Below are positions 3-6,556 of a stretch of 64,000 bases of DNA, piece by piece. Position numbers and translations under genes: made by a program. The DNA comes from a virus: IMG/VR virus record IMGVR_UViG_3300028571_002266, positions 96,001-160,000 of that record. One strand, written 5' to 3'. Under the pieces are notes generated by a model, which worked only from the letters and a program-made list of their open reading frames with translations, was not told the origin of the DNA and made no database searches. Within the stretch, counting starts at the first letter, position 1. Every line of letters starts with the position of its first letter.

Positions 3-230
3 CAGCCGGGCCTTGATAATATAGCGTATCTAAATTCTCAAAGAAAAGTAAATTACACAAAAAGATATTTTGTCATAAATTCTGGTTATAAAAAAATATT
101 GAGAATCACAACTAAAAGTGGCAAAGTCTTGCTTCTCTCGCCTGATCATCCAGTCTTGACTGATAAATTGAAATATATAAAGGCAGGAGTTCTTAAAATT
201 GGAGATAAAGTTGGAGTAATTAAAAAATAA
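3..230 (+). CDS. dnaE: 3' end of an N-terminal split-intein fragment (IntN), presumably fused to the N-half of DNA polymerase III alpha; runs off the window start
   Basis: Frame 3 is open from 3 to TAA 228-230: ...NSGYKKILRITTKSGKVLLLSPDHPVLTDKLKYIKAGVLKIGDKVGVIKK*. This is intein block B (SPDH) plus the usual IntN end (LKIGDKV). Not in the ORF track. The extein lies outside the window, so dnaE is inferred from the downstream half. Confidence 0.8.
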   Translation, partial: QPGLDNIAYLNSQRKVNYTKRYFVINSGYKKILRITTKSGKVLLLSPDHPVLTDKLKYIKAGVLKIGDKVGVIKK

Positions 231-265
231 TTCATATATATCCTTGCACAGAGCGGGAGATATAT

Positions 266-1279
266 ATGATTTGTAAAATATGCAATAAAGAGGTATCAGA
301 AAAATTTTATCGCCATCTAAATAGTAGTCATAAGATGAAAAAAGGAGATTATCTAAATTTGTTTCCAGAGCAAAAAGAGGAGTACAAAAGTCAAATTTCT
401 GTTTTGTGGAACAAAGGAAAAACCAAGTGCGATGATGATCGCATCATGGCGATTGCCGATAAGATAAAAAAATTCACAGGACAGGAACACATACGAAAGC
501 AAAGATCGGAAAACATGAAAAAAATGTATCAAAATGGTGATATGTTGTCCCCTGAGATGAGAGCTTATGTGCAAAAAAAAGGCACAGATGGATGGGTCAA
601 AAAGGTTAAGGAATCTTCTTTTGAAGAAAGAAAGATATTATTAAAGAATTTTTCTGATGCTGGCAACAAAAAAATACAAGAAAATAAAATAAATCGCACG
701 CCTGAAGATTATATGCGAATTTGCAAAAATGCCAAAGGAAAAGCTCAATATGGTAATTGTGCAGAATGCGGAAATCAAATTGTAATATGGGTTGGAGGCA
801 AGCCACGACCTAAACAAAGATTTTGTAATCAATCATGTCAAAAAATATATCAAAAAAAACATCCTTTTTATACATTATCTCATGTTGGAAAGCATTATTT
901 TTCAGAAAAAATGCAATGTGAATTTTATCTAAGATCAAAATTAGAAATTTGGCTTGCAGAAATGTTAGATGTAAATGAAAAAGTGAATTCTTGGCATATT
1001 ACACCATTCGCTGTAAGCTACGAGTTTCATGGAAAAAAACGATTGTATTACCCAGATTTCATGATAAACTCAAAGTGGGTTGTTGAATTGAAATCTGGTT
1101 ATATATTTGACATCGATGCCGACAAAAATAGAGCAAAGTTTATGGCTGCACAAGATTATTCAGAGGAGATAAATTGTGAGTTTTTTTATTGGCAATTTGA
1201 TAATCACAATATGACAAAAAAGTTATTTGAAAAAGATCAAAGGGTGATTGATTTCTTTTCATTTTTACAGGAAGCATGA
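266..1279 (+). CDS. Free-standing putative homing endonuclease: C2H2 Zn finger, CxxC/FCxxxC module and TnsA-N-like PD-(D/E)xK nuclease
   Basis: CKIC..HLNSSH; WNKGKTK; CAEC..FCNQSC; RSKLE..YYPDF..VVELKSG..K; SD GGGAG upstream. Confidence 0.8.
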   Translation: MICKICNKEVSEKFYRHLNSSHKMKKGDYLNLFPEQKEEYKSQISVLWNKGKTKCDDDRIMAIADKIKKFTGQEHIRKQRSENMKKMYQNGDMLSPEMRAYVQKKGTDGWVKKVKESSFEERKILLKNFSDAGNKKIQENKINRTPEDYMRICKNAKGKAQYGNCAECGNQIVIWVGGKPRPKQRFCNQSCQKIYQKKHPFYTLSHVGKHYFSEKMQCEFYLRSKLEIWLAEMLDVNEKVNSWHITPFAVSYEFHGKKRLYYPDFMINSKWVVELKSGYIFDIDADKNRAKFMAAQDYSEEINCEFFYWQFDNHNMTKKLFEKDQRVIDFFSFLQEA

Positions 1280-1280
1280 A

Positions 1281-1412
1281 ATGCTTGATTTTGAAGAAAT
1301 AGTTCAGATTGAAGAGGTTGGTGAAGATGATTGTTATGATATTATGTTGTTAGAAAAAGACTTGTATTTGGACGAGCCAAATTTTATAGCTAACGATATT
1401 GTTGTTCACAAT
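1281..1412 (+). mobile_element. Split intein C-fragment (IntC, 44 aa)
   Basis: MLDFEEIVQIEEVGEDDCYDI...NFIANDIVVHN followed by Cys+1 (CGMDKRYVERKKG): blocks F and G. Confidence 0.92.
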
Positions 1413-3800
1413 TGTGGCATGGACAAGCGTTATGTTGAGCGTAAGAAGGGTCATGAAAAATATGAAATTCATCATTTAATCAAGCCTATTCTTGAAAAAA
1501 CATATGGAGTTATGATTTATCAAGAGCAAATCATGCAGATATTGAATGTTGTTGGTGAAATTCCTTTGAAGGATTGTGAAGCTGTAAGAAAAGCTATATC
1601 AAAGAAGAAAATAGAATCTATTGAAAAATATAAAGATATGTTTATTAAGAATGGGCAGAAAAATTTAAGTTTTACAAAAGAACAAATGGAAGAGTTTTTT
1701 AATCAAATATTGTCTTGGAGTGAATATGGCTTTAATAAAACTTTGACCGAAGACACAATTATAAATTGTGTTGATGGCGCAAAGCAAATAAAAGACATTT
1801 GTGCCGGAGACATAGTTTATTCTATAAATGAAAAGGGAGAACAGGTACAAACTGAAGTTGCGGCAGTTCATGATCATGGCGTGGTCAATGTTGTGGAGGC
1901 GACATTTGATGACGGCTATGTTGTGAGGTGTACTTATGATCACAAATTTTTGACTGAAGAAGGACAAGTTCCTCTTTGGTTAATTGTTAAAGACAACATG
2001 GTTGTGCTGAGTTCTCCGTTGGGAGAACATGCAGGGGAAGAAAAAGAATGGTCATCTGGCAAGGTGTGGACAAATAATAAAAACTCTGGAAAAGATGAAA
2101 GAGCATCGAGAGAATTGCAAGGAGTGCAACTATCTGAAGTGGAGGCTGGAGGGAAAGAAATACATTTCCAGATGCGGAGTGGAATTTCTGCGTTCACCTC
2201 AACTGGTCCAAAATCATCAGAAAACTGGAGAAATGAATTCGGAGTGGTTCACTTCACTCCAGAGTATGCTTCTATCACCAATACCCGGAATTTGGTGTCT
2301 AGGAGAATATTACGAGTTGTGACCGTGGGTAAAAGACAATGTTACGATCTTGAAGTCGCCATCTCAACTCACAACTTTATTCTTCCGAATGGAATAATCA
2401 CATCGAACTCACATGCTGTGGCTTATACTTACATCAGCATGTATCTTTTGTATTTGAAGGTTCATTACCCTCATGAATTTTATGCTAGCATGTTATCATG
2501 TGAGACTTTGGCTGAGAAGATAAAAGACATTAAGATGGAGGCTAAGATACATGGTGTTGAGATGCATCGTCTTGACATTAACAAATCTGGCATTAATTTT
2601 GAGCTTAAGGATAATTTAATTTATTTTGGTTTTAGTAATGTGAAGGGTATAGGAGAGGGTCCTGCTCAAAAGATAGTGGCTGGTCAGCCGTATCGTAGTT
2701 TTGAGGATTTCCTTTATCGATGTGGAACAGATGCTTCGATGTTGAAGCCGATACTTGGTTTAAGATGTTTTAGGGATCGTGATCCAATTACTTTGTGGAA
2801 ATTTGCAGAGCATTTCAAAGAATGTTTTAAGAAAAACGAAGAGAAGCGCAAGCGTTTTGGTACTTCTTTGGAGAGGTACGAAGACGAGTTAAGGGAGCTT
2901 ATTCCTGAAGTTGAATTCAAATTATCTGATTTGAGTGGTGATTCACCATTTGATAACATTGAGTATCAGCAAAAATATGATAAGGAAGAGGAGATTACTG
3001 TTCTCAAGGAGTATGAGTGTAAGGAAGGGGATGGTGTTGGAAGGATTGAGATGGTATATGTTCCTGTTGATGGGACTGATGTTGTGATTGAGCGTGAGGT
3101 GATGAGATATTACAAGAAGATTGCTACTAAGAGGCCTTGGAACAGGTGGAAGGATCTTAAGAATCTTTGGAATAAAAGAAAGAGAACTATAGCGAGATTT
3201 TCTGATGCTGATTTCAAGACATTGCCAAGATTGATTGATTTCGATCCAGACCAATATGATATACCTAAGGATTTGGCTAAGGAGTTTAAGAATCCGGTTG
3301 TTTCAGAAGAAAAGTTTTATGGATTTGCTTGGATTCATGAGCTTGAGAGAAGTCCTGATTATAGAGGGAATTTGACATTTGATTCTTTGAGAAGTGACAT
3401 TGACAGTTCTTCTGGTCCTGTTGAGTTGAGGGTTAAGAAAGTAATTCAGATGACTAGTAAAAAGGGTTCTACTTATTCTCAGGTATTGGCGGAAGATGTT
3501 ACTGGTCAAGAGAATAAGATTAATGTTTGGTCTGATGACTGGGATCGTTGGCATAAAGAATTAAGTGAAGGTAACTTAATTAGGATAAGATTGCAACCTC
3601 CTTCTGGTGGTTTCAATACATTCTTGTTGGAATCAAATCAGAATGGCAAGTATAGAGGTCAGAAGAGATATCGAGACAAGGATGATGATCCTCGTGTTAT
3701 TGTCATGAGAGTTGGCTTAAAAGAAGAAGAGAAATTCATGACAGATGAAGAGGTTTTGGAACTTTTTAATAATTTAGGTATGGAAAATAAAAATGACTGA
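1281..3800 (+). CDS. dnaE: DNA polymerase III alpha, C-terminal half (IntC + extein + cis intein + extein)
   Basis: TYGVMIYQEQIMQI, RKAISKKK, YGFNK/SHAVAY, YLKVHYPHEFYA, VKGIG (HhH), C-terminal OB fold. Start moved to ATG 1281 (SD AGGA, 1 nt after the endonuclease stop). Confidence 0.93.
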   Translation: MLDFEEIVQIEEVGEDDCYDIMLLEKDLYLDEPNFIANDIVVHNCGMDKRYVERKKGHEKYEIHHLIKPILEKTYGVMIYQEQIMQILNVVGEIPLKDCEAVRKAISKKKIESIEKYKDMFIKNGQKNLSFTKEQMEEFFNQILSWSEYGFNKTLTEDTIINCVDGAKQIKDICAGDIVYSINEKGEQVQTEVAAVHDHGVVNVVEATFDDGYVVRCTYDHKFLTEEGQVPLWLIVKDNMVVLSSPLGEHAGEEKEWSSGKVWTNNKNSGKDERASRELQGVQLSEVEAGGKEIHFQMRSGISAFTSTGPKSSENWRNEFGVVHFTPEYASITNTRNLVSRRILRVVTVGKRQCYDLEVAISTHNFILPNGIITSNSHAVAYTYISMYLLYLKVHYPHEFYASMLSCETLAEKIKDIKMEAKIHGVEMHRLDINKSGINFELKDNLIYFGFSNVKGIGEGPAQKIVAGQPYRSFEDFLYRCGTDASMLKPILGLRCFRDRDPITLWKFAEHFKECFKKNEEKRKRFGTSLERYEDELRELIPEVEFKLSDLSGDSPFDNIEYQQKYDKEEEITVLKEYECKEGDGVGRIEMVYVPVDGTDVVIEREVMRYYKKIATKRPWNRWKDLKNLWNKRKRTIARFSDADFKTLPRLIDFDPDQYDIPKDLAKEFKNPVVSEEKFYGFAWIHELERSPDYRGNLTFDSLRSDIDSSSGPVELRVKKVIQMTSKKGSTYSQVLAEDVTGQENKINVWSDDWDRWHKELSEGNLIRIRLQPPSGGFNTFLLESNQNGKYRGQKRYRDKDDDPRVIVMRVGLKEEEKFMTDEEVLELFNNLGMENKND
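1740..2408 (+). mobile_element. Cis intein (223 aa) in the DnaE YGFNK/SHA motif, Thr1...Ser-Asn
   Basis: TLTEDT (block A), RCTYDHKFLT (block B), CYDLEV..HNFILPNGIITSN/S (blocks F, G); removing it restores YGFNKSHAVAY. Confidence 0.92.
2029..2322 (+). pseudogene. Out-of-frame ORF nested in the cis intein; probable remnant of a Zn-finger endonuclease gene
   Basis: GGGAGA just upstream of the ATG; RCG...H.ENCKEC then a second RCG...HQKT repeat that breaks off; the intein frame here reads as non-domain linker. Confidence 0.55.
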
Positions 3801-4921: not shown

Positions 4922-5548
4922 ATGAACAGTATGAGTAGCATGATGGATGATATCAACAAATATGCAGATATTTGGGACAAGGCTTTAGCAAAGGGCATTT
5001 TTAATGGTGCTCCTAAGCCTCCTACTCCAATTGAGCCAGAAGCTAGTGCTGATTTCTTTGGTCAGATGAAGACTGGCGAGTATGACATTGATGCTCCTTT
5101 GAATGAAGGAGAGGCCAAATACTGGAGGGATGTTTCCCGCAGTGCTGCTGGTCGTTCTTCCTATCATATGCCTCTTAATGAAGAGCGTGAAGTAGACAAG
5201 AAGTCGATTAAGAAGGCTTCTAACCGTCTTGGAAGCACCTTTAATCCTGTCTACAACAATACTGTTGGCAAGGATCAAGATTTGGGTACTCCTGACAAGG
5301 TTACCAAGAATTGGGGTGTTGGTGGTAAGGATCTGAATGATCTAGAAGACCTTAAGAAGCGCCTTTATAATCTTGAAGTAGAATTAAGTAAGGCTGGTAT
5401 CATTAAGGGTGAAAAGGGCAAAAAAAAGGCTGATTCAGAAAGCACCATCCTTAAGAGCATGGACGATTTGAAGAAAGACATTGATGGTCTTAGCGACAAG
5501 TTAAATGGCAATCGCACAGACGAGAGCATTCGTCGCAGAAGAAAATAA
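4922..5548 (+). CDS. hypothetical coiled-coil protein
   Basis: SD AAGGA, heptad-rich C-terminus. Confidence 0.75.
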   Translation: MNSMSSMMDDINKYADIWDKALAKGIFNGAPKPPTPIEPEASADFFGQMKTGEYDIDAPLNEGEAKYWRDVSRSAAGRSSYHMPLNEEREVDKKSIKKASNRLGSTFNPVYNNTVGKDQDLGTPDKVTKNWGVGGKDLNDLEDLKKRLYNLEVELSKAGIIKGEKGKKKADSESTILKSMDDLKKDIDGLSDKLNGNRTDESIRRRRK

Positions 5549-5568
5549 CTTTGATTTAATGTTATGTC

Positions 5569-5604
5569 CCCCTTAGAATTTTATAAGTTCTAAGGGGTAT
5601 TTTT
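5569..5604 (+). terminator. Intrinsic terminator-like hairpin overlapping a sigma70-type -10 (TTGATT 5551, 17 bp, TAGAAT 5574)
   Basis: CCCCTTAGAATT...AGTTCTAAGGGG followed by TATTTTT. Confidence 0.6.
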
Positions 5605-6147
5605 ATGTCTGCTAATCCGTGGAAAGCATCTGATGAGGTCATTCAGATTCTAAATCTTGTCAAGTCTAAGCATCATTCTCCTAGACTTGATGATTTTAGA
5701 GTTGCTGTTTGTTTTGATGACAGCAAGCCTTTTGTTAAGAATAAGCTTAATCTTGGAAAATTGAGTAAGTTTAGTGCCACTGCTAGGTTATGGCAGAGGG
5801 AGAAGTATGATTTTTGTTTGATTATTCCGATGGAGTTGTGGACTACTGCTTTGAAGGTTGATCAGAGGGAAGCATATCTTGATCTTATGTTGACTCGTTG
5901 TGACATGGAATATGTTCCAGAAGTTATTGAGGAGAACGGGAAAAAAATCAAGCTTACGGATGAATTTGGCAGGATTAAATACAGTAAAGTTCCGAAAGAG
6001 GATAAGGAAGGAAATGTTAAGTGGAAAATAGATCCTTTGGATCTTGAGGTTTTTGCCAAGAATGTTCGTAAATATGGATTATGGCAAGAAGATTTGTTGA
6101 TTTTCAAAGAAGCGATCTTAGCCGTTGATGGGGGCTTAGGTGGGTAA
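5605..6147 (+). CDS. Phage putative-metallopeptidase family protein with degenerate active site
   Basis: YDF.LII...W...QREAYLD(LMLTR)C...DLEVF...VRKYGLW matches the family layout but HExxH is absent. Confidence 0.6.
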   Translation: MSANPWKASDEVIQILNLVKSKHHSPRLDDFRVAVCFDDSKPFVKNKLNLGKLSKFSATARLWQREKYDFCLIIPMELWTTALKVDQREAYLDLMLTRCDMEYVPEVIEENGKKIKLTDEFGRIKYSKVPKEDKEGNVKWKIDPLDLEVFAKNVRKYGLWQEDLLIFKEAILAVDGGLGG

Positions 6148-6556
6148 ATCAAAACTGATTGAGATTGTTGTGCTGGGTTTGTGGCTTCTTATTGCTATTG
6201 TTTTATTTGTAAGGTTGCAGCCCAGCGCACAATATGTTCCTTCTTCTCCGGAAGGCATTATTAATCCAGAAAAATCTTATGATGTTAAGAAAATATCGAT
6301 AGTTGATGGTAATACTTTTGATTTAATTTTGAATGATAATTCTGTTTCGAGGATATTGGCGGAAATTCCTGTGAAGACTGTAATTGAAGCAAAGAAAAAA
6401 TTAATTGATCTTTTCAACAATTGTGAGAAGCCAAGAGTTGTTTTGAAGAAAAAAGATTCTGATGGGAAGTGGATTGTAGATTTCTATATTCATATTAATT
6501 CTAAAGAAATTGATCTTATTGATTGGATGAGGTCTAATAATTTGGTATATCAATAA
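6140..6556 (+). CDS. Membrane-anchored thermonuclease (SNase)-like protein, degenerate
   Basis: N-terminal TM helix; SIVDGNTF (cf. VIDGDT), DSDGKWIVDFY (cf. DKYGR). Confidence 0.5.
   Translation: MGKSKLIEIVVLGLWLLIAIVLFVRLQPSAQYVPSSPEGIINPEKSYDVKKISIVDGNTFDLILNDNSVSRILAEIPVKTVIEAKKKLIDLFNNCEKPRVVLKKKDSDGKWIVDFYIHINSKEIDLIDWMRSNNLVYQ

Follow-up and report, generated by a model that had tools for sequence, protein, structure and literature searches.

A phage dnaE gene whose split intein was very probably broken by a free-standing homing-endonuclease gene

Layout of the broken dnaE gene and its split intein

The DNA analysed here, called the window, is a 64,000-nt stretch (G000:C1:96001-160000) of a 168,478-bp virus record (IMG/VR record IMGVR_UViG_3300028571_002266), which comes from a giant, uncultured phage. 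At its 5′ edge lies a dnaE gene, encoding the catalytic subunit of the replicative DNA polymerase, in which the two halves of an intein are separated by another gene. It is very probable that this locus is a fractured gene: a class-1 intein in phage dnaE at an RPGxxx/C site (a slash in a sequence marks an intein junction) that was broken by a free-standing homing-endonuclease gene and is restored by trans-splicing. A longer sequence, L002, includes 10 kb upstream of the window, and a window coordinate equals the L002 coordinate minus 10000. The features of the locus are as follows (window coordinates unless marked L002).

L002 9943 (57 nt upstream of the window), + strand: start of the N-terminal intein half (IntN), with Cys1, block B S-P-D-H and a TIGR01445 match
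3..230, + strand: 3′ end of the gene that encodes the middle fragment of DnaE with IntN fused to it; IntN residues 21-95; stop codon TAA at 228-230
227..274, + strand: RNA hairpin in the spacer between IntN and the nuclease gene, pairing the Shine-Dalgarno sequence GGGAG and the AUG (266-268)
266..1279, + strand: free-standing putative homing endonuclease of 337 aa, with zinc motifs, helical repeats and a TnsA-like PD-(D/E)xK domain
1281..1412, + strand: C-terminal intein half (IntC) of 44 aa, start ATG at 1281, net charge -13, ending in VVHN
1413..1739, + strand: DnaE extein between the two inteins, from Cys+1 to GFNK, fingers domain; a patch of ~82% identity relative to L008, an intein-less relative
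1740..2408, + strand: cis mini-intein of 223 aa at GFNK/SHA, with Thr1 (ACT) and block B T-Y-D-H, ending in TSN before Ser+1
2409..3800, + strand: rest of DnaE downstream of the cis intein (end of the fingers, HhH, C-terminal region, stop codon)

A preliminary description of the window had proposed the central part of this layout, that is, an N-intein half stopping at 230, a separate gene at 266-1279, and an ATG at 1281 opening a 44-aa C-intein half that ends in VVHN/C. All of these are present in the sequence. It had also expected a DnaE segment upstream of the window that ends near the RPG motif and is followed by the first residue of an intein. As expected, the frame entering the window at its 5′ edge belongs to a 439-aa protein, whose gene starts at L002 8911 and whose first 344 residues are the DnaE palm (from PDVDIDY), the thumb and the start of the fingers. 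The frame reads …FQFDSEGMRALV…LFRPGCIK/CLQKDSFV…, which is DnaE and then the N-intein. The DnaE part ends three residues past RPG (RPGCIK/C), and the 95-aa IntN, starting with CLQKDS, follows directly after the N-extein …LFRPGCIK.

Both halves are recognised by intein profiles. IntN scores 32.6 bits on TIGR01445 (curated cut-off 24.5) and IntC 17.3 bits on TIGR01443 (curated cut-off 15.6), and all the class-1 catalytic residues are present. The net charges are +13 for IntN and -13 for IntC. The halves lie on separate polypeptides, delimited by the TAA at 228-230 and the new ATG at 1281. This TAA is genuine and not an assembly error, because IntN terminates within a few residues of the same position in at least 12 independent homologues from other samples. 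The IntC gene begins one base past the stop codon of the nuclease gene, and its ribosome-binding site AGGAAG lies inside the 3′ end of that gene. No significant RNA structure was found around the IntC start (z +0.58). The Cys+1 codon (TGT, 1413-1415) follows VVHN, the C-extein then continues as CGMDKRYVERKKG, and Pfam and NCBIfam assign DnaE finger and HhH domains downstream of the intein halves.

The joined product is colinear with intact DnaE. In the predicted splice junction RPGCIK/CGMDKRY, Cys+1 aligns with residue 645 of E. coli DnaE. As had been proposed, this site differs from the cyanobacterial split site EY/CFNKSH. The joined exteins, RPGCIK/CGMDKRYVERKKG, show no indel relative to intein-less L008, which reads RPGCLA/SGMTKRYVERKKG (RPGCLA/SGMTKRY at the junction); other intein-less relatives read, e.g., RPGPLN/MKMHERY. 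The joined extein length equals that of 20 intein-less homologues and also that of E. coli and Taq DnaE.

The nuclease gene between the intein halves

From the N- to the C-terminus, the 337-aa protein consists of a C2H2-type zinc motif, helical repeats, a Cys4 zinc motif and a nuclease domain (residues ~190-337). It has 22 full-length homologues with 43-98% identity. The zinc residues C3/C6/H17/H22 and C165/C168/C187/C191 are invariant in the family, and the invariant catalytic motif among the full-length homologues is E227, P263-D264 and E274-x-K276. Within the nuclease domain, S224, E227, Y252, Y261, P263, D264, F265, E274 and K276 are invariant, and none of these is a His.

In an AlphaFold (AF2) model, with a predicted local distance difference test score of 87, the best fold match of the C-terminal domain is TnsA (Foldseek expectation value (E) 5e-4, probability 1.0). 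The structural match to TnsA (PDB 1f1z, 1t0f) has Z scores of 9.3-9.4 over 123-126 residues, with a root-mean-square deviation of 2.9 A at Z 9.4. The family profile matches TnsA (E 0.013, the best match) and T7 endonuclease I. DUF7487 is matched at 29.1 bits (cut-off 27). PF08722 reaches 23.6 bits, below its cut-off of 26.5, and is listed for most homologues. Thus, the protein is predicted, from its sequence and modelled fold, to be a TnsA-like PD-(D/E)xK nuclease with two zinc modules. The N-terminal zinc and helical modules are consistent with a separate DNA-recognition region.

A Vsr-like affiliation was also considered. I-Bth0305I (3r3p) gives Z 7.2 over 95 residues, reflecting a shared superfold. 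The Vsr-like family was rejected: its conserved catalytic His (the equivalent of Vsr His69), which acts with Asp residues, has no counterpart among the invariant residues of the nuclease domain, and a sequence-profile search with the nuclease family gave no match to it at E <= 10. A single-sequence scan of viral contigs for the nuclease gave no match, and neither did a scan of genome contigs.

The protein shares the catalytic layout E…D…(E/Q)xK with TnsA of Tn7. In contrast to TnsA, it is encoded by a stand-alone gene within a broken one and carries the extra N-terminal modules. Is it then a homing endonuclease, or a TnsA-like nuclease with another role, such as transposition, defence or restriction, that lodged in the gap? 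The second possibility is quite unlikely. The closest solved relatives are indeed transposon proteins, and a NaeI-like restriction nuclease gene is lodged in the corresponding gap of one related locus, so such gaps do gather cargo. However, neither a TnsB- nor a TnsC-like partner gene was found among the open reading frames (ORFs) from 10 kb upstream to 9 kb downstream, and membership of a Tn7-like transposon was rejected on this basis. In all six of the other loci with readable surroundings, moreover, a full-length relative of the nuclease sits between the same dnaE intein halves. The N-terminal zinc and helical modules also argue against such a role, as does a hairpin that masks the ribosome-binding site, as in the endonucleases of fractured genes.

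This hairpin (227-274) has a folding free energy of -20.5 kcal/mol (z -4.3), and none of 200 shuffled sequences was equally stable. Structurally equivalent hairpins of different sequence occur in two related loci, L033 and L035. Hairpins upstream of the endonuclease, acting in translational control, were described at 15 of 16 fractured-gene loci (PMC2677866). A scan for sigma-70 promoters found 7, against 7.7 expected from shuffles, and no promoter is claimed.

Alleles of the insertion site and other breaks in dnaE

Is the module common at this site? Among close relatives, it was found in none of 24 related viral loci covering the junction, including L008 and L032. L008 has an N-extein 89% identical to that of the phage studied, and its site is empty. 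An exhaustive search with IntN gave 115 relatives. The best of them form the C-terminus of DnaE fragments 433-447 aa long, which carry the intein at the same RPGxxx/C site. The full module (IntN, a nuclease of the same family, and IntC) was found at the same site in phages that are more distantly related: L033/L034, L035, L036 (partial), L037 and L038. In another relative, P0048, an unsplit mini-intein of 140 aa occupies the site, and its halves are fused exactly at the break point of the phage studied. In L035, the NaeI-like restriction endonuclease gene and a 243-aa gene without a Pfam match lie between the nuclease gene and IntC (4999-6304). Thus, the gap between the intein halves collects extra cargo.

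Across these alleles, 13 IntN and 4 IntC sequences, Cys1, block B (S/T)-x-(D/E)-H, the terminal HN and Cys+1 are invariant. The VVHN/C ending is found in the phage studied, L033, L035 and L036, and also in L038. These data bear on whether the halves splice at all. They might instead dock non-covalently as a clasp that holds the polymerase pieces together without a peptide bond, and splicing in the phage studied is deduced from sequence. Such a clasp is very unlikely, since all the class-1 residues (Cys1, the block B His, the terminal Asn after His, and Cys+1) are kept across alleles that are otherwise 36-56% identical, and Cys at +1 is restricted to the intein-bearing alleles, with Ser, Met or Val elsewhere.

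A second, putatively cis-splicing intein downstream had also been noted in the preliminary description, and it is present at GFNK/SHA. The site corresponds to Taq K815/S816, with the FNKS motif 109 residues beyond the split-intein site, and lies three residues from the cyanobacterial DnaE split site. The N-terminal region of the cis intein resembles cyanobacterial DnaE inteins. Its homologues in L014, L015/16 and L038 start with Ser, not Thr. In L023 this site is occupied by a large Cys1 intein, and in L017 (9300-10920) by a second fractured arrangement, namely GFNR/C…IntN, a free-standing LAGLIDADG/helix-turn-helix gene of ~366 aa, and IntC…SRN/SHA. A 97-aa ORF in another frame (window 2029-2322) falls within the middle of the cis intein, a region that shows no features and exceeds its counterparts in L014 and L015 by ~25 aa. 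Elsewhere in the record, a SpoVR-like protein (L004 31-2400; G000:C1:81116-83485) is interrupted by a contiguous intein of full size, which includes a LAGLIDADG endonuclease domain and has the boundaries …NEGWA/C … NHN/S.

The preliminary description had concluded that the polymerase needs one trans- and one cis-splicing event. Both inteins are indeed present, but more is needed, because the upstream part of dnaE has an intein-less split of ~4 kb and an 8-nt stop-led coding gap in the PHP region. Piece 1 (PHP and the first part of the palm; L002 3441-4835) covers positions 2-98 of Pfam DNA_pol3_alpha, and piece 2 (L002 8911-9942) covers positions 100-259. Three opposite-strand genes and a glycosyltransferase/methyltransferase gene lie between them. 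This split recurs in most related loci, and L031 has a contiguous DnaE of 1185 aa. The C-terminus of piece 1 aligns with L031 DnaE residues 302-435 and the N-terminus of piece 2 with residues 339-460. Because both align to the same part of the contiguous protein, the start of piece 2 appears to be a degenerate copy of the segment at the end of piece 1. A direct BLASTP comparison of the two ends was not significant (E 0.44). Such an overlap is reminiscent of the tails known from gene splits driven by endonucleases. Two intein-less splits of this type, Aeh1 nrdA/mobE (PMC3045599) and T4 gene 39/60 with MobA and its bypass cassette (bioRxiv 10.1101/2022.08.31.505936), may serve as the model. In common with them, the split in the phage studied has a tail added at the C-terminus and, at the N-terminus, an extension homologous to parental sequence, and the gene also contains a stop-led coding gap. 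Unlike in those systems, the 4-kb gap of the phage studied now has no endonuclease gene, and the coding gap is 8 nt instead of 50 nt.

The coding gap is an 8-nt, UAG-led insertion, TAGTTTAC, after …GFEHLHLH of the PHP motif (L002 3457-3464; G000:C1:89457-89464), 6.5 kb upstream of the window. It shifts the frame, in which the conserved SDFSVLDG then resumes, and there is no start codon before Met41. The insertion is common to L008 and is not found in L029. In a survey of 60 piece-1 loci, about half had canonical spacing. About 23 had insertions of 5-8 nt, always TAG- or TGA-led; four had hairpin insertions of 40-47 nt; and three had Leu-stop-Leu (CTT TAA CTA or CTT) inside FSVLDG. At every surveyed gap the conserved motif resumes in the resulting frame. 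To judge from the sequence, the gap looks like a site of programmed ribosomal bypassing, as in T4 gene 60. Upstream, the neighbour of the gap is a 144-aa ORF whose CxxCxxCC match is weak and below the cut-off, and no endonuclease gene is adjacent to the gap in the phage studied.

Directly 5′ of dnaE lie a gene for a Cas12i-like effector (L002 1-1881; E 6e-59 to Cas12i2, PDB 6ltp) and a 13-repeat CRISPR array (L002 1986-2896) with the 36-nt repeat core CCCACAATACCTGAGAAATCCGTCCTACGTTGACGG.

Is a gene with so many breaks still functional? Ratios of nonsynonymous to synonymous substitution rates (dN/dS) relative to L008 are 0.09 (piece 1), 0.12 (N-extein), 0.22 (extein between the two inteins) and 0.14 (C-terminal extein). 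Since these four values are all low, dnaE is under purifying selection and is not decaying. A pseudogene, in a phage that replicates with another polymerase, would account for four interruptions in a single gene of an incomplete virus record, but it is hardly credible and was rejected on these dN/dS values, the more so as the pieces themselves contain neither in-frame stops nor frameshifts and the same architecture is kept in phages 50-97% identical.

Nucleotide identity to L008 is 96-98% until at most 30 nt from the split-intein site, ~82% across the 327-nt inter-intein extein, and 94-99% directly after the cis-intein site. Since the identity changes at the two intein sites, both inteins and the intervening extein make up one recombination tract relative to L008.

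Comparison with known systems and a proposed mechanism

The novelty of the arrangement was overstated in the preliminary description. Fractured genes were defined by Dassa, London, Stoddard, Schueler-Furman and Pietrokovski in 2009 and included three dnaE loci (PMC2677866). The phage dnaE locus belongs to this published kind and differs from it in its endonuclease family. It shares with the published loci an independent endonuclease ORF that separates the two intein halves within a host gene, a hairpin upstream of the endonuclease start, a phage-like setting, and IntN and IntC lengths within the published 88-105 and 33-54 aa; one published dnaE locus also has an additional in-frame intein. The endonucleases of the 2009 study are GIY-YIG or Vsr-like (PMC2677866). 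In contrast, the present nuclease resembles TnsA and combines a canonical PD-(D/E)xK motif with two zinc modules, and the present site shows empty, unsplit, fractured and cargo-loaded alleles. Intein sites a-f of PolIII-alpha have been named without residue-level positions in the text (PMC4760082).

Like the cyanobacterial Ssp and Npu inteins, this is a split intein in the DnaE catalytic subunit, with a polymerase that is rebuilt by trans-splicing (predicted in the phage). The cyanobacterial intein, however, sits at EY/CFNKSH, ~170 residues downstream of RPGxxx/C. In cyanobacteria, the halves are encoded at separate loci, and their charge polarity is opposite to that of the phage pair. The gp41-1 and gp41-8 inteins are likewise split inteins of class 1; they come from phage-like DNA and pair a basic N half with an acidic C half (PMC2677866). 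They differ in their host protein, and their sequence similarity to the phage pair is negligible (gp41-1 E 0.86). Among solved inteins the best match has E 0.005. Since this similarity is weak, it is plausible that the IntN/IntC pair is an orthogonal split intein, as had been suggested.

The following mechanism is proposed. A free-standing homing-endonuclease gene would have broken the RPGxxx/C intein at the usual point of endonuclease insertion. Two polypeptides would then be made, DnaE(middle)-IntN and IntC-DnaE(C-terminal part). The basic IntN (+13) and the acidic IntC (-13) may associate and fold into one HINT domain, and trans-splicing would yield …RPGCIK-CGMDKRY…, after which the downstream mini-intein would splice in cis. 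The 337-aa protein is probably the mobility engine. It would cut intein-less dnaE alleles, and repair would copy the whole IntN-nuclease-IntC module into the cut alleles. The hairpin over the ribosome-binding site may hold the translation of the nuclease down.

Several points weigh against the view that the locus is a fractured gene restored by trans-splicing. I infer the splicing activity, the nuclease activity and the target specificity of the nuclease. The virus record is ~39% complete (CheckV), so a second polymerase gene is possible elsewhere in the genome. IntN has a dN/dS of 0.42 relative to L037, at saturated dS, which indicates relaxed constraint relative to the exteins. Finally, the recombination tract is compatible both with a gain in the phage studied and with a loss in L008-like phages.

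A more far-reaching reading can be put forward only tentatively, as it is somewhat improbable that all of its parts hold. The nuclease may found an undescribed site-specific homing family that is dedicated to RPGxxx/C of phage dnaE and travels with the split intein, and the polymerase may mature in four steps. These non-standard steps, all in one gene, would be a ribosomal hop at the PHP motif over the UAG-led gap of 8 nt, non-covalent assembly of the pieces on either side of the old intein-less split, trans-splicing, and cis-splicing by an intein with Thr in place of Cys or Ser as its first residue.

The intein pair, being distant from those characterised so far, is a reasonable candidate for the orthogonal split-intein toolbox, and the nuclease is a candidate for a scaffold of new specificity. 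Within one phage clade, a single insertion point is found empty, occupied by an unsplit mini-intein, fractured, and fractured with extra cargo. This allele series and the sharply bounded recombination tract directly illustrate the published model in which endonuclease genes break inteins and genes. The replicative polymerase evidently tolerates several layers of selfish interruptions under purifying selection.

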